Assembly: GCF_030013595.1 (NCBI RefSeq)
Contig: NZ_CP122768.1
Reading direction: 5' to 3' (one strand)
Source of the DNA: Escherichia coli
Lineage (GTDB): Bacteria; Pseudomonadota; Gammaproteobacteria; Enterobacterales; Enterobacteriaceae
DNA length: 64,000 nt
This document shows, piece by piece, positions 33,811-45,778 of this stretch. Position 1 is the stretch's first letter; every line of letters begins with the position of its first letter. The notes beneath the pieces are model-generated. The model ran no database searches, was not told the origin of the DNA, and saw only the letters and a program-made list of their open reading frames with translations. The translations under genes were made by a program, and so were the position numbers.

Positions 33811-34788
33811 TTAAGCACCTCCTAGTGGATTAAACCTCACCGCATCCTGCAGGTAATCCGGCGCAAGATGGGCATAAATCATCGTTGTCTGAATCTTTGC
33901 GTGCCCCAGAATTTTCTGGAGCGTCAGAATATTGCCGCCGTTCATCATGAAATGACTGGCGAAGGTATGGCGCAGCGCATGAACAGCCTGGCCGTCAGGA
34001 ACATCAGGTGCGACCGTTTTGATGACATCGCGAACCAATGGATAATCCAGCGTCGGAAACACCAGTTTCCCGCCCCGTATTTTGATCTTTTCAAACAGGC
34101 TTTCAGAAATAGGAACGGTACGGTTTTTGCTGTTCTTCGTTTTTGAAAAAGTGATTCGACAATGAAGAACACGGCGCTGCTCTAGTGCCGCTACCTCGCC
34201 CCATCGCGCCCCGGTCGACAGAAGGATTTCGACAGCCAGCCGTTCATCGGGATTTTCAGCCAGTGCATCCAGCAACTGAACACATTCAGACTTACTCAGA
34301 TATCCCATTTCGCGCTCGTTAACCTTCATTCCTTTAAGGCCTTGAACGGGGTTATCGTTAAGAAAATGGCCGGATGAGATGAGTGCGGTAAACATCGCGC
34401 TTAACGCCCCAATCTCTCGATTTATGGTGCTGGGCTGTATCCCCTGCTCTATCCTGGACACACGTAGCTCGGTGAGCATCGTTGTATTAAGTTTATGCAC
34501 GCACGGGTCATCCATTGCCTCACTCAAGCGCAGCAATTTAAGGCGCGTGTTATGCCCTGACTTCATTAGCTGGCCGTGGTATTTCCACCACAAGTCAATA
34601 AGCACTGACAGCGGGCGGCGATCAATGGAGTTTCCTTTCCACTCATTGTTATGCTGTTGCGCCAGCACCCACCGCTCATATAAAACTGCATCCGATTTCG
34701 TTTTAAATTTTTTGCGAATGCGTTTGCCTTTACGCCCCTCAGGACGCATGTCAAGAAGATACCCTCCCGGAATTGATTTTATGCTCAT
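33811..34788 (-). CDS. int: tyrosine integrase, P2 Int family
   Basis: Starts MSIKSIPGGYLLDMRPEGRKGKRIRKKFKTKSDAV (compare P2 Int MAIKKLDDGRYEVDIRPTGRNGKRIRRKF); catalytic ...HALRHTFASH... and ...TTMIYAHL... motifs. Confidence 0.9.
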   Translation of the reverse strand: MSIKSIPGGYLLDMRPEGRKGKRIRKKFKTKSDAVLYERWVLAQQHNNEWKGNSIDRRPLSVLIDLWWKYHGQLMKSGHNTRLKLLRLSEAMDDPCVHKLNTTMLTELRVSRIEQGIQPSTINREIGALSAMFTALISSGHFLNDNPVQGLKGMKVNEREMGYLSKSECVQLLDALAENPDERLAVEILLSTGARWGEVAALEQRRVLHCRITFSKTKNSKNRTVPISESLFEKIKIRGGKLVFPTLDYPLVRDVIKTVAPDVPDGQAVHALRHTFASHFMMNGGNILTLQKILGHAKIQTTMIYAHLAPDYLQDAVRFNPLGGA

Positions 34789-34837
34789 TCGTGAAGCCCC
34801 AGCGTTACAAGACCACCATGCCCCCAGCGTTCCATGA

Positions 34838-35149
34838 TTAGCCGGGCTGTGTGCCAGTCTTGCGGGATTTTTGAGAAGACGATGTGTTTTCTGGCCCATC
34901 AGGGGAGAGAGAAGGACTGATCTGCCCAGCAGCCTCATTTGTTTCGTTACTCATCAACCACGTAGTGTATTTTTTAAATTCCGGGTGCATTGTGATTTTC
35001 AGTAAAACCTCCGTTCCCACACCTCGAATACCAGTCTCGTATTGCTTAACCGTACCAACCGCAATACCTATTGAATCCGCGAACTTTGCCTGACTAAGCC
35101 CCTCAGATTCTCGAATTGCTTTTAGCTTCTTTGATATCTCTATTGACAT
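34838..35149 (-). CDS. C: immunity repressor C (P2 C family HTH)
   Basis: 103-aa ORF MSIEISKKLKAIRESEGLSQAKFADSIGIAVGTVKQYETG...HPEFKKYTTWLMSNE...GQISPSL, resembles P2 C; directly upstream of int on the same strand. Confidence 0.75.
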   Translation of the reverse strand: MSIEISKKLKAIRESEGLSQAKFADSIGIAVGTVKQYETGIRGVGTEVLLKITMHPEFKKYTTWLMSNETNEAAGQISPSLSPDGPENTSSSQKSRKTGTQPG

Positions 35150-37583: not shown

Positions 37584-40406
37584 ATGACGGCAAAGTACAT
37601 CAGGGACTGGCAACAACCGCGCCACGCAGTGGGGCGTGAAGGAACGGGGATCCCCGCTCCTGAATCCGCGCTTTCCTCCTGGCTGGATGCCTACCGGGCA
37701 GAGAACGAGCGCCGCCAGGAAATGGCTGATGCGGCGTTCTCCGCCACGCCGCTGGGCAACCTGATTAATAAAAGCCTGGACGCACAGGAAAAACAGGACA
37801 AAACCATCACACTGGCAGGAGACGCCAGAAAACAGGCACGCGGCGCGGTGGATGAAGCCATGGCCTCGCTGCGCCTGCTGCCGTCCTATCTGCGCGATCC
37901 GCTTATTCGCCACCTCTCCTTCCTGCGCAAAAAACAGGAAGCCGATCGTCAGAAAGGAAAAAACGCCAGGCAGGCAGAACGCTATGCGCGTGGGACCCTG
38001 CGCAAAATATTCGAACGTCTGGAGCGCACCGATCACCGCTGGCTGACACCGGGTTATCGCTCCCTTGCCGGACGCGAACGCCTGGACGATTTGCTTTACC
38101 TGCCGCAGCTCAACAAACACCAGATACAGACGCTGGCCACCATGACGGCGGCGATGTTCAGCAGCACCTTCGAAAAACTCTGCGATGGCTTTGGCGCGAC
38201 CGATGGCGAACTGACCATGGATGTAACGCTGAAGGCGTATCAGATGCTGGCCCGCATGGCGTTACACCTGCACATCATGCCTCCACATTATGACGCACTG
38301 ACAACAGACAAAGACCGGAGGAACGAACCGGACACGGAGCTGCTGCCGGGCGCAATCCTTCGCCTGACCTGTGCGGAATGGTGGAAACGCAAACTGTGGC
38401 TGTTACGTTGCGAGTGGCGGGAAGAACAACTCCGCGCCGCCTGTCTGGTTTCCAGAAAAACATCACCCTATCTGAGCCAGGACGCGTTAAGCGAGTTTCG
38501 CGCACACCGCGAGAAAACACGCGATTTCCTGAAAAGTTTCATGCTGGAAAATGAAGACGGGTTCACGATTGATCTCGAGACGGTGTATTACGCGGGAGTA
38601 AGTAACCCGGTTCACCGTAAGGCAGAAATGATGGCCACCATGAAGGGGCTGGAACTTCTGGCCGAAGCCCGTGGCGACAGAGCGGTGTTTCTGACTGTCA
38701 CCTGCCCGTCAAAATACCACGCAACAACGGAGAACGGTCATCCGAATCCCAAATGGAACGGGGCCACCATGCGCGACTCCAGCGATTACCTGGTTAACAC
38801 GTTTTTTGCGACGGTCCGCAAAAAACTGAACCGCGACGGTCTTCGCTGGTATGGCATCCGCACGGTGGAGCCTCACCATGACGGCACTGTGCACTGGCAT
38901 ATGATGGTCTTTGCACATCCGGACGAGATTGAAACCATCGTGTCCCACGTCTGCGATATTGCCATTCAGGAAGACCGCCACGAGCTGGGCGATGATATTA
39001 CTCCGCGTTTTAAAGCGGAGTACGTCGACGGCTCAAAAGGCACGCCAACCAGCTACATCGCCACCTACATCGGAAAGAACCTGGACAGCCGCGCCGTGGA
39101 TGGCATCGCCCCGAAAACGGGCAAGCCACGCGTTGACCACGAAACCGGAAAATCAATGGCCGAGAGCGTGGAGCGCGCCATCGGCTGGGCGCGCCTTCAC
39201 CGGGTCCGCCAGTTCCAGTTCTTTGGCATCCCCTCCCGTCAGGTGTGGCGTGAACTGCGCCGCCTTGCCAGCCAGATGGCACGCAACCCGGAAGGCCCGC
39301 AACGGCTGAAGGATGACGCAATGGATGCAGTGCTCGCTGCCGCTGATGCCGGGTGTTTTGCCTCCTACATTGAAAAACAGGGCGGCGTACTTGTTCCACG
39401 CCAGGACTACCTGATTCGCACCGCCTACGACCTCGCAGATGAGCTGAACGATTACGGCGAACAGAGCGTACAGATTTACGGGATCTGGTCACCACTCATC
39501 GGGGAGTCTTCCCGTGTGTGCACACATCCGGATAACTGGAAGCTGGTAAGACGTAAACCGGAAGCGGAAGACAGCGCCCGCGAAAATGGTTTTGACCTTC
39601 AGGGCGGCCCTGCCGCCCCTTGGACTCGTGGCAATAACTGTCCCCGTGTACAGGAAACGGACAACAACGGGACAGAACAGCCGGAAGAACGGCCAGCACC
39701 GTGGCCGCAGCTCCCTGACGGCGTTGAAGTGAACGAATGGATGCGCTCACTGAAACGGCACGAACGCCGGGCGCTGATGCGTTCGCTTCGTGACAAACAG
39801 GCAAAAAACAGCAGTGATGAAATGCAGAGCTGGACACAGAGCCGCAAACAGCAGCGGCCTTTGCCTGATAACCACGAATTACTCGCTAAAGAATGGCGGG
39901 AGTCTGCTGAATCTCTCGGCCTGCATATCGGTGAACAACAGATGCAGCACCTGTTACGGGGCGGCAGTCTGTACGTTGACGGCAGCATCATTGCACCGCA
40001 GGGATTTGAAATTGTACGCAAACCGGATACCCGCCCGGACAGCCGAATCACGCAGCTCTGGCAGCGCCTGAGCCGTAATCATGGCGTAAGCAGCACGGAG
40101 ATCCGCCATAACCCGGTCGCCAGCTATCTGGCACAGCTGGGGGCATCAGACCCTGAAGCCGCCGCACGCCTGGCATCCACACTTCAGCAGGACCAGAACA
40201 CCATGAAAACACCCGTTACCGTGCTTTCTGACATGCTGCGCGCCATCCGCGACGCAGAGCACGCACAGAGAATCAGTGAAACCACTGAACGCGCCAGCCG
40301 CAAAGCAGACCTGCTGCGGGGTGGCCTGACCAGTGGAAACAAAAAACAGACAGAAACGGGACTCACGAATCCCGCAAATGAGCAAAAAACGCGCAGCGAT
40401 ATATGA
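37584..40406 (+). CDS. A: replication initiation endonuclease, P2 gpA family (rolling-circle, HUH motif)
   Basis: 940-aa ORF with ...WYGIRTVEPHHDGTVHWHMMVF... HxH motif and ...YIATYIGKN... active-site Tyr region typical of P2/186 A proteins. Confidence 0.9.
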   Translation: MTAKYIRDWQQPRHAVGREGTGIPAPESALSSWLDAYRAENERRQEMADAAFSATPLGNLINKSLDAQEKQDKTITLAGDARKQARGAVDEAMASLRLLPSYLRDPLIRHLSFLRKKQEADRQKGKNARQAERYARGTLRKIFERLERTDHRWLTPGYRSLAGRERLDDLLYLPQLNKHQIQTLATMTAAMFSSTFEKLCDGFGATDGELTMDVTLKAYQMLARMALHLHIMPPHYDALTTDKDRRNEPDTELLPGAILRLTCAEWWKRKLWLLRCEWREEQLRAACLVSRKTSPYLSQDALSEFRAHREKTRDFLKSFMLENEDGFTIDLETVYYAGVSNPVHRKAEMMATMKGLELLAEARGDRAVFLTVTCPSKYHATTENGHPNPKWNGATMRDSSDYLVNTFFATVRKKLNRDGLRWYGIRTVEPHHDGTVHWHMMVFAHPDEIETIVSHVCDIAIQEDRHELGDDITPRFKAEYVDGSKGTPTSYIATYIGKNLDSRAVDGIAPKTGKPRVDHETGKSMAESVERAIGWARLHRVRQFQFFGIPSRQVWRELRRLASQMARNPEGPQRLKDDAMDAVLAAADAGCFASYIEKQGGVLVPRQDYLIRTAYDLADELNDYGEQSVQIYGIWSPLIGESSRVCTHPDNWKLVRRKPEAEDSARENGFDLQGGPAAPWTRGNNCPRVQETDNNGTEQPEERPAPWPQLPDGVEVNEWMRSLKRHERRALMRSLRDKQAKNSSDEMQSWTQSRKQQRPLPDNHELLAKEWRESAESLGLHIGEQQMQHLLRGGSLYVDGSIIAPQGFEIVRKPDTRPDSRITQLWQRLSRNHGVSSTEIRHNPVASYLAQLGASDPEAAARLASTLQQDQNTMKTPVTVLSDMLRAIRDAEHAQRISETTERASRKADLLRGGLTSGNKKQTETGLTNPANEQKTRSDI

Positions 40407-40451
40407 AGCGCGCACAAAACAGGCAAAAACGGGATTTCAGAATCCCGTAAA
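40354..40451. repeat. two 25-bp dyad-containing direct repeats straddling the A stop codon, upstream of the parM-like gene
   Basis: AAACGGGACTCACGAATCCCGCAAA (40354..40378) and AAACGGGATTTCAGAATCCCGTAAA (40427..40451); each contains CGGGA-N8-TCCCG; 73-bp centre-to-centre. Confidence 0.6.
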
Positions 40452-40482
40452 CGATTAATTAATCAACATAAGGAAAAGCGAC

Positions 40483-41442
40483 ATGAAAATTTGTATCGAC
40501 GACGGCTCCACCAACATCAAGCTGGCATGGACTGAGAACGGCGAACGCCGCAACGCCATCAGCCCGAACAGCTTCAAGTCGGAATGGTCTGCGCCGTTCG
40601 GCGGCACGCAGCCCGCGAACTACATGCTTGATGGCGTGCGCTATGGTTTTGATCCGGTCAGCGATCGCTTTGTCCAGACGACCGACACGCAATACCAGTA
40701 CAGCGATGTAAATGTCATTGCCATTCATCACGCGCTGGTCAAATCAGGCATCACGCCACAGGAGGTGGATGTGGTTGTCACCCTGCCACTGAGCGAGTAT
40801 TTCGACACAAACGCACAGCCGGACATGGCCAACATCAACCGCAAAAAAGCGAACGTTATGCGCCCGGTGGAGTACCAGAACGGCGAAGCATTCACTATCC
40901 GTAACGTGCGGGTTATGCCTGAATCCATTCCGGCTGGCTTTAAAGCACTGGCTGACATGAGTCCGTTTGAATCCCTGCTGATTGTGGATTTAGGTGGAAC
41001 CACGCTGGATGTGGCAAAGGTTCAGGGACAACTGGCAGGTATCAGCCAGGTGTTTTGCGATCCACACGTAGGCGTTTCCCTGATGGCCGATGCAGTACTG
41101 TCGGTGATGGCCACTAACGGTATGCGTACCAGTCACCACATCGCCAATACCATTATCGAACATCGCCATGATGAAGCCTGGCTGCGCCAGCACATCCACA
41201 ATGACGCGCATTACGCCAGCCTGATGGCGGTTATTCGTGAAAAGGAAGAAACACTGAAACAACGCGTGATCCGCGCGCTGGCGGGTTTTTCGGGTTACGG
41301 GCGGGTGATGGTTGTCGGTGGCGGGGCGGAGATTGTGGCACCCGCTATCCGCGAAGCCTGCGGAGTTAATGCGACTTTCATCGCGGACGGGGTGCCACAG
41401 TTTGCTCTGGTTAATGGGCTGTACGCAATGGACAAGGAGTAA
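40483..41442 (+). CDS. parM: ParM/StbA-family actin-like ATPase
   Basis: 319-aa ORF MKICIDDGSTNIKLAW...NSFKSEW...YSDVNVIAIHHAL...VMPESIPAG...IVDLGGTTLD...VVGGGAE...LVNG, alignable throughout with R1/R100 ParM/StbA. Confidence 0.85.
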   Translation: MKICIDDGSTNIKLAWTENGERRNAISPNSFKSEWSAPFGGTQPANYMLDGVRYGFDPVSDRFVQTTDTQYQYSDVNVIAIHHALVKSGITPQEVDVVVTLPLSEYFDTNAQPDMANINRKKANVMRPVEYQNGEAFTIRNVRVMPESIPAGFKALADMSPFESLLIVDLGGTTLDVAKVQGQLAGISQVFCDPHVGVSLMADAVLSVMATNGMRTSHHIANTIIEHRHDEAWLRQHIHNDAHYASLMAVIREKEETLKQRVIRALAGFSGYGRVMVVGGGAEIVAPAIREACGVNATFIADGVPQFALVNGLYAMDKE

Positions 41443-41446
41443 ACCA

Positions 41447-41758
41447 ATGACGACACCAACCAGACGGATAAGTTTCTATCTGAAGCCCGCCGCCGTCAAG
41501 AACGAAGGCGAAGCATGCGCCTGGCTGGACAGCCTTACACCAGAAGCCCGCAAAAGCGGCCAACGTGTGGCTTTTCTGGCCGGGCTGGCACTTCTGAAAA
41601 TGAATCCGGCAGAGGCTTACCGACTGGCTGCATGGGCTGACGATGAGGCGTTATCAGTGACACAAACCAGGACAGAACGCCCCGCGTCACAGCCAGTACC
41701 AACCACACAGATAACCAGTCGGATGGCCGGAAATATCAGGGCGTTATTTCCCGAATAA
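41447..41758 (+). CDS. parR: ParR/StbB-like adaptor protein (putative ribbon-helix-helix)
   Basis: 103-aa ORF MTTPTRRISFYLKPAAVKNEGEACAWLDSLTPEARKSGQRVAFLAGLALL...; AAGGAG 7 nt upstream, 4 bp after parM stop; N-terminal pattern resembles R1 ParR. Confidence 0.65.
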   Translation: MTTPTRRISFYLKPAAVKNEGEACAWLDSLTPEARKSGQRVAFLAGLALLKMNPAEAYRLAAWADDEALSVTQTRTERPASQPVPTTQITSRMAGNIRALFPE

Positions 41759-41786
41759 CACAACATCAGGGCGCATCCGCCCTGAT
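41735..41786. repeat. ATCAGGGCG direct repeat plus a 9-bp-stem hairpin at the parR 3' end
   Basis: ATCAGGGCG at 41735..41743 and 41765..41773; inverted copy CGCCCTGAT at 41778..41786 forms a hairpin with a CATC loop. Confidence 0.55.
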
Positions 41787-41821
41787 GACTTTAATCCGGG
41801 AACATAAACAAGGGGGACACA

Positions 41822-42154
41822 ATGCAACACATTGACAGAGAAAAAGCGCAGCGACTGATTGAGCGGATGGAAGCGCTGGCGAAAGAAGAAAATGTCAACA
41901 TCCAAAAAATAGCTGAATGTGGCCAGATAGTTCTTCGTCGTGAAAAAGACCTCAAACAACTGATGTCTGGCGAAACCAGCAAAACATGGACTTCAGGCGA
42001 GGAGACGATTTATTGCAGCTTCTGCAATAAATCTCAGTACGAAGTCACAAAGGTGATTGCCGGACCGTCTGTTTACATCTGCAATGAGTGCGTGGATTTG
42101 TGCAATGAAATTATCAGGAGAGAAGTGACAGACAAAAAGGGAAAAAACGCATGA
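41822..42154 (+). CDS. ClpX N-terminal zinc-binding-domain homolog with N-terminal coiled-coil extension
   Basis: 110-aa ORF; C-terminal ...[40 protein letters not shown] is near-identical in pattern to the E. coli ClpX Cys4 zinc-binding domain ([40 protein letters not shown]); AGGGGG RBS. Confidence 0.8.
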
Positions 42155-42489
42155 ACAGAAAACAAAAACAAGAGTTGAAATACTTTTTACGTAAAGAAAT
42201 TGCCAGGCTTGAAGATGCAGAATCACAATCATCAGAAATTCCGTTCGGAATGGATATCAACGACGCCCGTATGCTCCAGGCATACCGCATAGCTCAGGCT
42301 GCACTACAGGCAAAACCGTCAGATGGACTGGTTAGAGCAGTACGATTCTATGAACTGGTAAAGCGTGAGAATCCGCCAGCCGAAACCGGAGCATGGAAAG
42401 ACGCTGTTGACTGGGTACTCAAAGAGGCTTGTCAGGTTGTAAACACTGGCATCAAAGGAGACCTAGCCCAGCCTGCATCAAAGCTATAG
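42151..42489 (+). CDS. hypothetical protein translationally coupled to the ClpX-domain gene
   Basis: 112-aa [29 protein letters not shown]...; ATG overlaps the upstream stop (ATGA); followed by a strong terminator. Confidence 0.55.
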
Positions 42490-42498
42490 AAATGAGCC

Positions 42499-42526
42499 AA
42501 AACGCCCTCTTCCAGGGCGTTTATTT
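42499..42526 (+). terminator. rho-independent terminator closing the accessory island
   Basis: AAAACGCCCT-CTTCC-AGGGCGTTT followed by ATTTC. Confidence 0.75.
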
Positions 42527-42529
42527 CAA

Positions 42530-42669
42530 TGCACAATAGTGCACAAATTTGCACAATTTTTTTGAACGAATTTTTGCCCTTCCGGCCCGCGTGACAGTTG
42601 GATCCGTCAAGGATCCGTGCGTGCACAAAAAAACGCGCTTTTTCTGCGCGCAGGTGACGGGGGAACAGC
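42530..42669. other. candidate cos/packaging region of the P2-like phage
   Basis: Non-coding interval before portal Q where P2 has cos; three TGCACAA repeats at exact 10-bp phasing (42530, 42540, 42550) plus a fourth at 42622; GGATCCGT at 42600 and 42611; palindrome CTGCGCGCAG 42644..42653; GGTGACGGGGGAACAGC (42653..42669) loosely resembles the P2 cohesive end. Confidence 0.4.
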
Positions 42670-42980
42670 CCGCGTTTCAGGGGGTAAATAGCATTCCCTG
42701 AACGATGTCGCAGAGATACAACAGAATGGCTGTATTTCTCACGCTGAGCGTGAAAAAGATGTGAGGGCTTTTGATTTGATGGGGTGAAAGGTAAGGCCGT
42801 CAAAATCGCACTGAGGCGGCGAGAACATACAGTCAACGCGGTAGGATTGCGTAAGAGTCTGACCGTCGATGGTGGCGATAAACTGGAAGGCGTCGTGAAA
42901 TTATCTGATTGATACAGGAGCTGGAGAGTCGGGGCATAAATTTTTTATGCCCCGGCGAAGCAGCAGACAAGCGAAGCGCG

Positions 42981-44027
42981 TCAGGATGTGGGCTGGGTAT
43001 CTAACAGTGCGTAAGGGTTAAAGCGGATCACCTCTTCGCCAAGCCAGTCATTGATGTGCTTCATGGCCTCCATGACGGGCATCAGCTCGTTAATTGCGTA
43101 AACCCGCGCGGCCTTCTCCACATCACCAAACGCACTTTTTTCACCCGGCATCGCTCCCATCAGTTGCGGCGGAACGCGGTGCGCAGCCAGCACATCATCA
43201 CGGGATGCCGCCTTAACATTCATGAACTCATCCTTTGCGGTGATCTGCTGGAACGGCAAAATTTGCACACCTTCTTTGCCCCCGTTGGGCGCATGAATGA
43301 GCACGTTTTTAAATGCACCACCACCACGCGCACCCTGTAACGTTTCTTTCAGGGAGTCCATGCTTTCGCGGTTTACCTGCGCTGCACCGATGTAGATGAT
43401 GCACCCGGCGTGGGATCCGTTGTCGTAATACAGTTTTCTGAACATGTCCGCCGAATGAGACAGGCTGGCCGAGAGTAATGCGCCAAGATATTCCGGCATG
43501 CCGTAAATTTCCTGGTTAATGTCAGGATTCATCAGGTGACACACTTTGCCTGGGCGAAACTGAAACGCATCCTTGCCATCCTGCACATACCACCATGATT
43601 CAAGATCGCTTCCGCGTCGCATGTATTTCGCCAGGGCGTGCCGTAATTTAAGCGGTTCGCCGAGCATATTGCTTCGAAGCTCAAGGAATGCGTTACCGAA
43701 CACAAACCAGTCCAGCGCCAGCGCCGAGAAATCCTGCCGGGAAAGCAGCGGGTGCGGAATATAGCAGCCGAGCAATACATTGCGCTTAAAGTAAAGCGCA
43801 GACTGATGCCAGGACGTTTGCCGGGCAGCTCTTGCCAGACCGTACCAGTCTACCGGGGTTTCATACCACCGCCCGTTATCAGCACAGTACATATTGTCCA
43901 GCAGGTCATGCCCGGTCAGGCGATAAGGACCATCAAATGTGAATGCACTGAGCGATGATTCTTTCCTGAGCGCATCAGCGAGATCAATGCGTGAACTCAT
44001 GCGCACTTTTTTATTTTTTCTGCTCAT
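42981..44027 (-). CDS. Q: portal protein, P2 gpQ family
   Basis: 348-aa ORF, size and sequence pattern of P2 Q; leftward, upstream of terminase P. Confidence 0.9.
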   Translation of the reverse strand: MSRKNKKVRMSSRIDLADALRKESSLSAFTFDGPYRLTGHDLLDNMYCADNGRWYETPVDWYGLARAARQTSWHQSALYFKRNVLLGCYIPHPLLSRQDFSALALDWFVFGNAFLELRSNMLGEPLKLRHALAKYMRRGSDLESWWYVQDGKDAFQFRPGKVCHLMNPDINQEIYGMPEYLGALLSASLSHSADMFRKLYYDNGSHAGCIIYIGAAQVNRESMDSLKETLQGARGGGAFKNVLIHAPNGGKEGVQILPFQQITAKDEFMNVKAASRDDVLAAHRVPPQLMGAMPGEKSAFGDVEKAARVYAINELMPVMEAMKHINDWLGEEVIRFNPYALLDTQPTS

Positions 44028-45778
44028 CAGAACTCCATAACCGTGAAACGCTCGTTTTCTCCTTCGCCGCCAATTGGTTCGTTAATGACAGCAAGCATGG
44101 TTGCCCACGCAAGGTCGCCGTGGCTGATCCCCCTCGCGCGGTCCGTTTCGTAAGTGATAAAGCCGCCCGGTGTTTTCACCTTACGCACGGCGTTAAAGGC
44201 CGCGACCAGCTCGCGTTCGGCGCGATCGTATTCCCACCGTCCGGCACGCATTATTTGCAGCATTTTCAGTACCAGCGACCGTTTGGATGACAGCGTGAAG
44301 GTGTACGGAATAGCAGCAGGGAAAAACCGCTTCACTATCTGATAAACAGCCTCCCCGTTCCCGCCCGTCACATCAATGCCGATGTGTTCCACGTTGTAGC
44401 GACACGTGAACTCTTCAATGACTCTGGCCTGTTCTTCAAACTCCAGCCCCTGAACGCGTCGCGTCTCCACCGTTCGAAAACGGCCACCAGGAACAGCCGG
44501 AGGAACCACCACGGACACAGCGCCGCTGTCGCCGTTGCCACTGCTGCCGTTTGCGTCATACCCAATCCATACCGGACGATTCCCCATCGGGCGGGGAGCA
44601 AAAGGTTTCCAGTCTTTCCAGTCGTCGTATCCGTCAACACCGCAGCCAATCAGGATATTCAGGTTAAATGCCGATTCCCCTTCGCGAACAAACTCACACA
44701 TATAGAGATTGAGGAACTCGTCTTCGGTGTTTTCATCACGGATTTCGTCAATATCGGTGTGTTTCCAGCCGTGATTAACCACATCTTCCAGCGTGACAAT
44801 TTGCCGCCACGTCCGGTCAGGGCAGATAAGCCCGTTATGCAGCGTTTTCCAGTCCACAGAAAAACGCTGGCGTTTATGCGCGGCCTTTTTCTCGTTCCAG
44901 CGGTCGCCGTTCCAGTAGACGTATGCCTCGTGCGTTTCGGTTGATGGCGTGGAGAAGTAGGTGCGCCGCAGTCCGCTGAGGGTTGCCATAGCGCCAGCCA
45001 CCTTGCGCAGTTCAGCAAAGCGACTGACCCAGAAAAATTCATCAAAATAAAAATTGCCTGTGTAGGACTGTGCCGTCGCAGCAGAAGTACCGAGAAAATG
45101 CAGTTCTGCGCCGTTGGAGAGGATGATTTTATCGCCCCCTTTCAGCTCCACATCAACTTCAGCCGCGGCCTTCTGAATAATGCTTTTAAACTGGAACGCC
45201 TGACGACGCGACGCAGACAAAAAAATCTGGTTACGCTGGTAAGGTTGTGCCACATCGTCACGCAGCGCCATCAGCAGTGCTTCCTGTGCAAAATACCAGG
45301 TCGCCCCAATCTGTCGGGATTTCAGGATCATCCTGTTACGTATCCCGGCTTCACTGCAAAGGGTCAGGGAGTCAAACCAGCCCCGCTGATGCCACTCCAG
45401 CCTGCTGATGATTTTTTCCCGCAGTGCGGCAATCTGCTCCGGCGTGAAATGATTTTTAAGTTTTTTCGCCCGGCCTTTCTTTCCTGTGGCCGTCGCATCC
45501 GGCTGGCCATCATGCAGTTTTTTAAGCTGCCGGGTCAGCAGGTCTATTTCCTTAAAGTCACCACCTGTTTTATTCTGTTTTTCAGTAAGCTGGATGAGGC
45601 GCGCATCGATGGACTGCGTGACACGCTGCACGGGTGGCGTTTCATCCCACTGGTCGCGTTTTTTCCACGCATAAATCGTGTTCGGGTTTATTCCCATCAG
45701 ACGTGATATTTCTGCGGGCGGATAACCCTGCCAGTAAAGTTGCCGCGCACGCTGGCGCACAAAAGCGTCCTGAATCAT
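44027..45778 (-). CDS. P: terminase large (ATPase) subunit, P2 gpP family
   Basis: 583-aa ORF with ...LKSRQIGATWYFAQEAL... Walker A-like and nuclease-domain acidic residues. Confidence 0.92.
   Translation of the reverse strand: MIQDAFVRQRARQLYWQGYPPAEISRLMGINPNTIYAWKKRDQWDETPPVQRVTQSIDARLIQLTEKQNKTGGDFKEIDLLTRQLKKLHDGQPDATATGKKGRAKKLKNHFTPEQIAALREKIISRLEWHQRGWFDSLTLCSEAGIRNRMILKSRQIGATWYFAQEALLMALRDDVAQPYQRNQIFLSASRRQAFQFKSIIQKAAAEVDVELKGGDKIILSNGAELHFLGTSAATAQSYTGNFYFDEFFWVSRFAELRKVAGAMATLSGLRRTYFSTPSTETHEAYVYWNGDRWNEKKAAHKRQRFSVDWKTLHNGLICPDRTWRQIVTLEDVVNHGWKHTDIDEIRDENTEDEFLNLYMCEFVREGESAFNLNILIGCGVDGYDDWKDWKPFAPRPMGNRPVWIGYDANGSSGNGDSGAVSVVVPPAVPGGRFRTVETRRVQGLEFEEQARVIEEFTCRYNVEHIGIDVTGGNGEAVYQIVKRFFPAAIPYTFTLSSKRSLVLKMLQIMRAGRWEYDRAERELVAAFNAVRKVKTPGGFITYETDRARGISHGDLAWATMLAVINEPIGGEGENERFTVMEF

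Follow-up and report, generated by a model that had tools for sequence, protein, structure and literature searches.

A conserved parM-parR block and a variable cargo slot encoding a ClpX-type zinc-binding domain in P88-like prophages of Escherichia coli

Described relatives of the interval

The ParMRC (par/stb) systems of plasmids R1 and NR1 are the closest described relatives of two genes, parM and parR, that we analyzed in a P2-like prophage of Escherichia coli. The prophage lies in a 64-kb stretch of contig NZ_CP122768.1 (assembly GCF_030013595.1), hereafter called the window. Here, parM and parR follow the phage replication endonuclease gene A and are themselves followed, on the way to the portal gene, by two short genes: g3, encoding a stand-alone zinc-binding domain (ZBD) of the ClpX type, and g4 (Table 1). 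The parM-then-parR order is that of R1 and NR1, the ParM protein is 47% identical to R1 ParM over its full length, and ParR falls in the family PF10784. There are also differences: the P88-like cassette sits in an integrating P2-like phage, beside a rolling-circle replication endonuclease; R1 has ten 11-bp iterons around its promoter, whereas two 42-nt palindromic repeats are present here; and our ParR has 103 residues instead of 117, ending in LFPE without the C-terminal peptide of its R1 counterpart.

An actin-like ATPase and a DNA-binding adaptor are also found in an integrated prophage of Corynebacterium glutamicum, CGP3, where AlpC and AlpA are reported to serve efficient viral DNA replication (PMC4446434, PMC5539076). 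However, AlpC is a distant Alp, whereas the ParM protein studied here is a close relative of R1 ParM.

For P2-like phages, Rousset et al. 2022 (PMC9122126) define the gpA-gpQ interval as a hotspot and report a 'putative plasmid partitioning system', the same system as the present parMR, in about a quarter of these phages. Table S5 of that paper lists the combination of StbA, Plasmid_stab_B, zf-C4_ClpX and a hypothetical protein; a part of this table contains 43 mentions of ClpX versus 489 of StbA. What we describe is no new kind of system: public annotation and a published supplementary table already contain the arrangement. Our analysis departs from that work in one respect: parMR was counted there as hotspot content, whereas we find it to be fixed backbone, with the hotspot proper starting after a hairpin that follows parR. 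Literature searches on phage ClpX zinc-finger proteins, zf-C4_ClpX and Xuanwuvirus found no functional work, nor did we find functional studies of ParMR in P2-like phages or of phage proteins made up of a ClpX ZBD only.

As for g3, the relevant comparison is with the ZBD of E. coli ClpX, whose residues F16 and I46 belong to a hydrophobic patch docking lambda O, SspB and RssB (PMC7804408). This domain dimerizes, and when supplied free, in trans, it inhibits the RssB-dependent degradation of sigma-S by ClpXP (PMC7226468). The C4 treble-clef fold, the Cys ligands and the F16/I46 patch residues are kept in g3, but its ZBD is C-terminal, is preceded by a phage-specific helical hairpin of a very narrow family, and is not attached to an AAA+ module.

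A fixed parM-parR block next to gene A

In every Xuanwuvirus record examined (P88, P884B11, Shae_phiSM, 520873, Entero_P88(23) and pZ1323PEC0009-2), gene A, parM and parR occurred in this order and with the same spacing, and the genes after parR differed in each of the six. We also compared 80 IMG/VR loci whose ParM was at least 99% identical to the one in the window. ParR directly followed ParM in all 80, and gene A preceded the pair in all but one of those where the contig reached that far. The downstream portal protein of these loci was either 99-100% or only ~30% identical to that of the window, implying that two different head modules are combined with the same replication module and its A-parMR block. 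The more distant portal type was seen beside A-parM-parR in L026, L031, L033, L035, L043, L047, L049, L051, L063 and L076.

Being fixed next to gene A, parMR is not variable cargo. It was present in 1302 of 5426 complete E. coli genomes, at 1448 chromosomal places versus 2 on plasmids. Among distinct alleles, the ratio of nonsynonymous to synonymous polymorphism (pN/pS) was 0.21 for parR, 0.24 at the 3' end of gene A and 0.056 for parM (69 alleles); the last figure is biased downward, protein identity having served to rank the loci. The parM-parR pair is a conserved, lineage-fixed backbone block under purifying selection, which is strong on parM. The initial annotation had set its reading of the four genes against the possibility that they are a conserved and functionally characterized core of the phage lineage; for parMR the conservation is there, the functional characterization is not.

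The parM product matched the Pfam domain StbA_N (2.5e-82) and the ParM C-terminal domain (2e-68), and aligned over residues 2-316 with the structure of R1 ParM (PDB 1mwk; E 9e-93). Its segments DDGSTNIK, DLGGTTLD and VVGGGAE align with identical segments of R1 ParM, corresponding to the phosphate 1, phosphate 2 and adenosine motifs of the nucleotide-binding site. These matches firmly identify the predicted parM product as a full-length actin-like ATPase close to R1 ParM. In the phage database, close relatives of this ParM were confined to Xuanwuvirus, and the StbA-type protein of the phage-plasmid D6 was 48% identical.

The gene directly after parM encodes, by the same kind of evidence, a ParR/StbB-family adaptor: the predicted protein matched Plasmid_stab_B (2e-24) as well as phrog_2515 of PHROG, annotated as 'partition protein', and its N-terminal 56 residues, where a ribbon-helix-helix fold would be expected, were 34% identical to residues 5-60 of R1 ParR. 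A PDB sequence search with ParR gave nothing meaningful. This type of ParR is nearly missing from real plasmids. It exists as two alleles, ~52% identical, which have in common the first 18 residues, MTTPTRRISFYLKPAAVK, and the terminal LFPE, the latter being part of a C-terminal NI(R/Q)(A/T)LFPE motif kept in both; the linker diverges. Conserved ParR termini beside a constant parM are what one would expect if the termini were the DNA-contact and ParM-contact elements. The MTTPTRRISFYLKPAAVK segment is presumably the DNA-reading strand of ParR, and the LFPE end is a candidate ParM-binding tail. The allelic difference was noticed at L005 (5598-5912) and at least 20 of the loci L010-L089 (e.g., L015, L023 and L026), and the adjoining parM was 98-100% conserved.

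Upstream of parM, two 42-nt direct repeats are found 73 bp apart, one within the 3' end of gene A (40340-40381) and the other in the intergenic region (40413-40454). Each holds a 19-bp palindrome, ACGGGAyTynnGAATCCCG. No other match to this pattern exists in the window, and its count there was reached in 0 of 100 shuffles. Throughout 55 distinct upstream sequences the GGGAT/ATCCC arms were kept while the loops varied, and both ParR alleles lie behind the same repeats. We infer that the paired palindromes are a candidate parC, bound by ParR. In one IMG/VR locus, a 73-bp repeat unit ahead of parM is precisely missing and the 3' end of gene A is altered too, apparently because of recombination between the two 42-nt repeats. 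A parC downstream of parR, composed of the ATCAGGGCG repeats and the hairpin, was also considered. It was judged less likely, since in phages with the second ParR allele the downstream sequence is unrelated, whereas the DNA-reading N-terminus of ParR and the palindromes ahead of parM are shared.

The initial annotation had reported repeats in the 63-bp spacer after parR, and indeed this spacer contains a hairpin with a perfect 10-bp stem (-18.4 kcal/mol, z -4.7) but no U-tail, which may act as an attenuator or mark an RNA end. The CAGGGCG/CGCCCTG stem, with differing loops, is kept ahead of unrelated cargo types, meaning that the hairpin belongs to the parMR module.

Two kinds of record depart from the usual chromosomal arrangement. 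One is L009 (pZ1323PEC0009-2, NZ_CP148288.1), in which a complete P88-like genome, integrase included, appears as a circular E. coli 'plasmid' of 34,461 bp. The assembly may have captured an episomal or replicative form of the phage; the P88-like prophage, which has an integrase, is not normally kept as a plasmid in the way of a phage-plasmid. The other is P0133 (L091-L093:4001-4576), a 191-residue protein in which the N-terminus of ParM is fused in frame to the C-terminus of g4. It is a deletion scar, in chromosomal prophages with A and portal intact: the sequence between the fused parts, from within parM through parR and g3 into g4, is gone. Its lineage is widespread, and 283 blocks of the collection list P0133.

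A variable slot carrying g3 and g4

Homology with sister phages ends just after parR and returns at 42530, from where the sequence aligns at 96-98% in phages with different cargo. In the 47 loci with both boundaries, the intervening content ranged from 535 to 2004 bp and comprised ~15-20 cargo types. Some of the other cargo matched AbiLi/AbiLii, RmrA, PDC-M04A and PDC-M11A/B (PADLOC) or the Doc toxin (NCBIfam). The true variable slot is ~41788-42529 and holds only g3 and g4 here: content that varies at a fixed position among close phages is what we see for g3-g4, not for parMR. The accessory island that had been placed in the A-to-portal hotspot on first inspection is accordingly real for the slot with g3 and g4, but there is no single four-gene island. 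The idea that the four genes make up one system fails as well, parMR being fixed across the lineage and g3 and g4 assorting separately.

A leader, GAACATAAACAAGG(G/A)G (window positions 41788-41821), is common to the g3-type cargo and to the commonest other cargo, a 196-aa protein beginning MSEINYQALRE... (L010-L013), suggesting a common recombination junction at the left edge. At the right boundary, exactly where the cos-proximal region starts, positions 42530-42560 contain three close copies of TGCACAA(T/A) with overlapping palindromes.

Residues 64-99 of g3 matched zf-C4_ClpX (8.9e-18), and comparison with the ClpX ZBD structures in the PDB (1ovx and 2ds5) gave E values of ~1e-19. The cysteines C65, C68, C87 and C90 are invariant, and F67 and I97 of g3 align with F16 and I46 of ClpX. 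In the AF2 (AlphaFold2) model, which had a pLDDT (predicted local distance difference test) score of 79.6, a confident helical hairpin (residues 6-48) is connected through a disordered linker to a C-terminal C4 ZBD. Foldseek placed this domain on the E. coli ClpX ZBD with a root-mean-square deviation of 0.6-0.7 Å at 75-80% identity. No AAA+ module was found in the 110 residues of g3, and the NCBIfam clpX models covered residues 60-106 only, scoring 50 bits versus a cutoff of 371. Alignment and predicted fold together establish g3 as a putative free-standing copy of the ClpX N-terminal ZBD, borne on a helical hairpin.

An exhaustive phmmer search with residues 1-60 of g3 returned 12 representative clusters in 1.84 billion proteins; apart from one repeat protein, all were close relatives. 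We also considered whether the ZBD had recently been captured from E. coli clpX and rejected this, because the host gene was absent from the nucleotide matches of a distant blastn search. Full-length g3 homologues (50% identity, both domains) occur in lambdoid prophages and, on plasmids of 90-110 kb, in phage-plasmids, directly after ead/Ea22-like genes and with the 4-nt overlaps typical of lambdoid exo-xis/early-left accessory genes; each precedes an overlapping gene unrelated to g4. In contrast to these lambdoid genes, g3 and g4 lie in a P2-like phage, after parR. In L016 and L084, the cargo slot holds g3 followed by an opposite-strand Doc-family toxin gene and a gene for a 118-aa putative antitoxin.

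With g4, searches gave no Pfam match even at E up to 10, no NCBIfam match and nothing meaningful in the PDB. Having no sequence match to any solved structure, g4 does not match the solved C-terminal domain of lambda Ea22 either, and it also differs from Ea22 in that PF13935 (the ead/Ea22-like family) is absent from it. The AF2 model of g4 is helical and of low confidence (pLDDT 61). Two modules can be distinguished, an N-terminal one (residues 1-55) and a C-terminal one (~57-104), each of which recombines with other partners; phrog_26213, phrog_660 and phrog_250, of unknown function, match only the C-terminal part. The latter module, ~50 residues long and nearly invariant, is found fused to many N-termini, including PF13935 Ea22-like ones (e.g., P0219), and at the DNA level it matches segments of unrelated coliphages with 88-93% identity. 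In terms of sequence and predicted fold, g4 is a mosaic, helical, lambdoid-type protein, and both g3 and g4 derive from the lambdoid early accessory gene pool.

The two genes are not an obligate pair, given their independent assortment. Among the 80 loci, g3 occurred with a full g4 in 10 and with a g4 having another C-terminus in 1; g3 without g4 was found in 3-4 (two of them beside the opposite-strand Doc-type pair) and g4-like genes without g3 in 6. In pZ1323PEC0009-2, g3 is precisely lost and the N-terminal module of g4 is joined to another C-terminal domain. The initial annotation had taken the overlap of the g4 ATG with the g3 stop as a sign that g4 is a coupled partner. However, an ATGA overlap is not evidence of coupling when g3 and g4 occur separately and the g3 homologues have unrelated downstream genes; overlaps of this type are usual in lambdoid early accessory operons. 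Neither gene has a toxin or antitoxin family match, so that they do not qualify as a type II toxin-antitoxin pair.

The profile searches upheld all four family assignments made at first reading (ParM/StbA, ParR-like, ClpX zinc-finger and, for g4, no family), NCBIfam giving only subthreshold ParM/PRTRC and ClpX N-terminal matches for the four proteins. The statement that no described defense system could be assigned is likewise borne out, as none of the four proteins matched PADLOC-DB v2 at E up to 0.01.

Table 1. Features of the interval between gene A and the portal gene (positions in the window)
Feature	Position	Strand	Details and basis
Replication endonuclease gene A	37584-40406	+	940 aa; open reading frame (ORF) call; P88 annotation
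Candidate centromere (parC-like)	40340-40454	.	Two 42-nt direct repeats with palindromes
parM, actin-like segregation ATPase (predicted)	40483-41442	+	319 aa; Pfam and PDB matches
parR-like adaptor gene	41447-41758	+	103 aa; Plasmid_stab_B
Spacer between parR and g3	41759-41821		63 bp; contains hairpin
GC-rich hairpin ending the parMR module	41764-41787	+	Inverted repeat; folding energy
g3, stand-alone ClpX ZBD protein (predicted)	41822-42154	+	110 aa; zf-C4_ClpX
g4, mosaic helical protein (predicted)	42151-42489	+	112 aa; start overlaps g3 stop by ATGA
Terminator hairpin and U-rich tail, right edge of cargo slot	42502-42529	+	Inverted repeat; energy
Conserved cos-proximal noncoding region	42530-42980	.	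Between cargo slot and portal gene
Portal gene (gpQ homologue), right-hand hotspot anchor	42981-44027	-	ORF call; P88 annotation

Checked against the raw sequence and the ORF list, all coordinates and the four gene calls of the initial annotation are correct (Table 1). Over positions 40350-42560 the prophage matches Escherichia phage P88 (Peduoviridae, Xuanwuvirus, P2-like) at 100% identity; outside this segment the two diverge. The locus had been described as the A-to-cos interval of P2; it does lie between gene A and the portal gene, but the phage is P88-like (Xuanwuvirus) and not P2 itself. By analogy with the P2 genome layout, the region 42530-42980 probably holds cos. A gene A homologue matched PF05840 (Phage_GPA). 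The parR ATG lies 4 nt past the parM stop, with an AAGGAG at 41434-41439, within the end of parM. The portal and large terminase genes extend beyond the block on the minus strand (42981-45778).

The hairpin that closes the block (42502-42521; -14.8 kcal/mol, z -3.5) has a U-rich tail and had been called a strong terminator. Hairpin and tail are real; 'strong' is slightly generous, because the consensus terminator scan does not list this hairpin. The promoter scan gave no plausible promoter for g3, and Rfam and tRNA scans of the region returned nothing.

About 1.5 kb separates the end of a lambda-like late block (small and large terminase, portal, tape measure and tail fiber J; 9694-32270, minus strand) from the P88-like integrase (33811-34938), implying that the window contains two prophages in tandem.

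Interpretation of the two modules

Overall, we read the interval as two independent modules of a P88-like prophage, a ParMRC-type segregation cassette and swappable cargo, with a probability of roughly 0.6. The first module (~40340-41787) would be a type II, ParMRC-type DNA segregation cassette within the phage replication module. In such a cassette, ParR would bind the paired palindromic repeats just upstream of parM, and its conserved LFPE tail would capture the ends of ParM filaments, whose growth would push circular, nonintegrated phage genomes apart. The separated copies would thus spread through the cell or reach both daughters once the phage has infected or excised, or while it occasionally exists as an episome.

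The second module (~41788-42529) would be the cargo slot, here holding g3 and g4. We imagine that g3 might dimerize as the ZBD does and compete with host ClpX for docking adaptors or substrates, such as SspB, RssB, lambda-O-type initiators and MuA, thereby shifting ClpXP proteolysis to the benefit of the phage. Such a role, as a decoy for ClpX adaptors or substrates, is the one that we favor for g3, but it is purely conjectural.

A number of observations weigh against this reading, in addition to the low bias of the parM pN/pS value mentioned above. The C-terminal 17 residues of R1 ParR, which form its ParM-binding peptide, have no counterpart in the present ParR; the region upstream of parM in P88 shows neither an R1-like 11-bp iteron array nor a shared repeat unit; and the promoter scan gave no promoter-like site ahead of parM. 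For these three reasons, the centromere and the ParM-binding tail are put forward as candidates only. Furthermore, with 1448 of 1450 copies chromosomal, stable plasmid maintenance is not the normal state, and the ParM-g4 deletion with intact A and portal means that the cassette is dispensable for prophage carriage. As regards g3, its pN/pS of 0.54 indicates weak constraint, although from only 8 alleles. Foldseek searches against PDB and BFVD matched its ZBD only, leaving the N-terminal hairpin without a match. Finally, inhibition by the free ZBD in vitro took concentrations of 5-20 µM (PMC7226468), which speaks against a decoy.

A broader view, which we advance tentatively, is that g3 founds an uncharacterized class of temperate-phage proteins that mimic the N-terminal docking domain of ClpX and reprogram host ClpXP and that, separately, ParMR allows an integrating phage to pass briefly through an episomal phase with active segregation. 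Reprogramming might occur through titration of adaptors or N-domain-dependent substrates, or through pairing of g3 with ClpX N-domains. Phage replication or regulatory proteins could be stabilized as a result, or ClpXP-triggered abortive-infection or toxin-antitoxin responses blocked.

Some alternative readings must also be considered. ParMR might position or separate replicating genomes during lytic growth, rather than ensure inheritance in a plasmid state. The cassette is tightly joined to gene A, and no promoter is predicted for it alone, suggesting that parMR is probably expressed with the early genes; moreover, its copies are almost never found on plasmids, and CGP3 AlpAC provides a precedent (PMC4446434, PMC5539076). 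Such a function is possible but doubtful, considering that this ParM is as close as it is to a bona fide plasmid partition ParM and to the D6 StbA-type protein, that a complete P88-like genome is known as a 34.5-kb circular 'plasmid' record, and that lineages with parMR deleted persist.

Returning to the cargo of our two-module reading, g3, alone or with g4, might instead serve in anti-phage defense or counter-defense. It could block steps of competing phages that depend on the ClpX N-domain, such as remodeling of the MuA transpososome, or, by analogy with phage-encoded Lon inhibitors, prevent the ClpXP degradation of antitoxins that triggers abortive infection. The gpA-gpQ interval is a documented defense hotspot, the slot of sister prophages holds recognized or candidate defense systems, and the ZBD is the docking site of MuA, lambda O and adaptors. 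In two loci, g3 adjoins a Doc toxin and a putative antitoxin, and the P1 antitoxin Phd is a ClpXP substrate; the closeness of such a pair to a ClpX-ZBD protein could be significant or accidental. We consider a defensive role unlikely, however: PADLOC models match neither g3 nor g4, and ClpX is absent from the table of tested systems in Rousset et al. (PMC9122126). In addition, g3 is in line with the early operon, without a predicted promoter, and its homologues lie in lambdoid early-left operons, a placement that suggests expression in lytic development rather than in the lysogen.

Still less probable is a function of g3 as a ClpXP adaptor, whose hairpin would bind a specific phage or host protein while its ZBD would pair with, or replace, the ClpX N-domain for delivery. 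The two-domain architecture with a flexible linker would suit an adaptor, as would the conservation of the N-terminal domain together with the ZBD in all full-length members of the family. Yet the ZBDs of ClpX form stable homodimers within the hexamer and are not known to exchange with free ZBD, and the N-terminal domain of g3 has no detectable relatives beyond its own family.

Lastly, the notion that the four genes constitute one integrated machine for phage exclusion or maintenance, combining a polymerizing ATPase and its adaptor with a ClpXP-directed pair, draws on their being co-directional and tightly spaced, on the single terminator after g4, on the absence of predicted promoters inside the block save one weak match in g4 and on the occurrence of the four-gene arrangement in about 111-178 E. 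coli genomes, but it is hardly credible and largely refuted by independent assortment, given that parMR is present in ~1300 genomes, mostly without g3 and g4, that g3 and g4 occur separately and, in lambdoid contexts, without parMR, that a conserved hairpin, kept before unrelated cargo, divides parR from the cargo, and that recurrence at 98-99% nucleotide identity fits shared descent.

Irrespective of the actual mechanisms, interest remains in what ParMR does for a phage that integrates and in how the stand-alone ZBD functions. A ParMR cassette within an integrated P2-like prophage is present in roughly one in four complete E. coli genomes. The question of why an integrating phage retains a plasmid-segregation machine under selection bears on the extrachromosomal phase of temperate phages and on where prophages end and phage-plasmids begin. 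If g3 truly works as a stand-alone ClpX docking domain, it would offer a simple, testable case of a phage altering the substrate choice of a major host protease.

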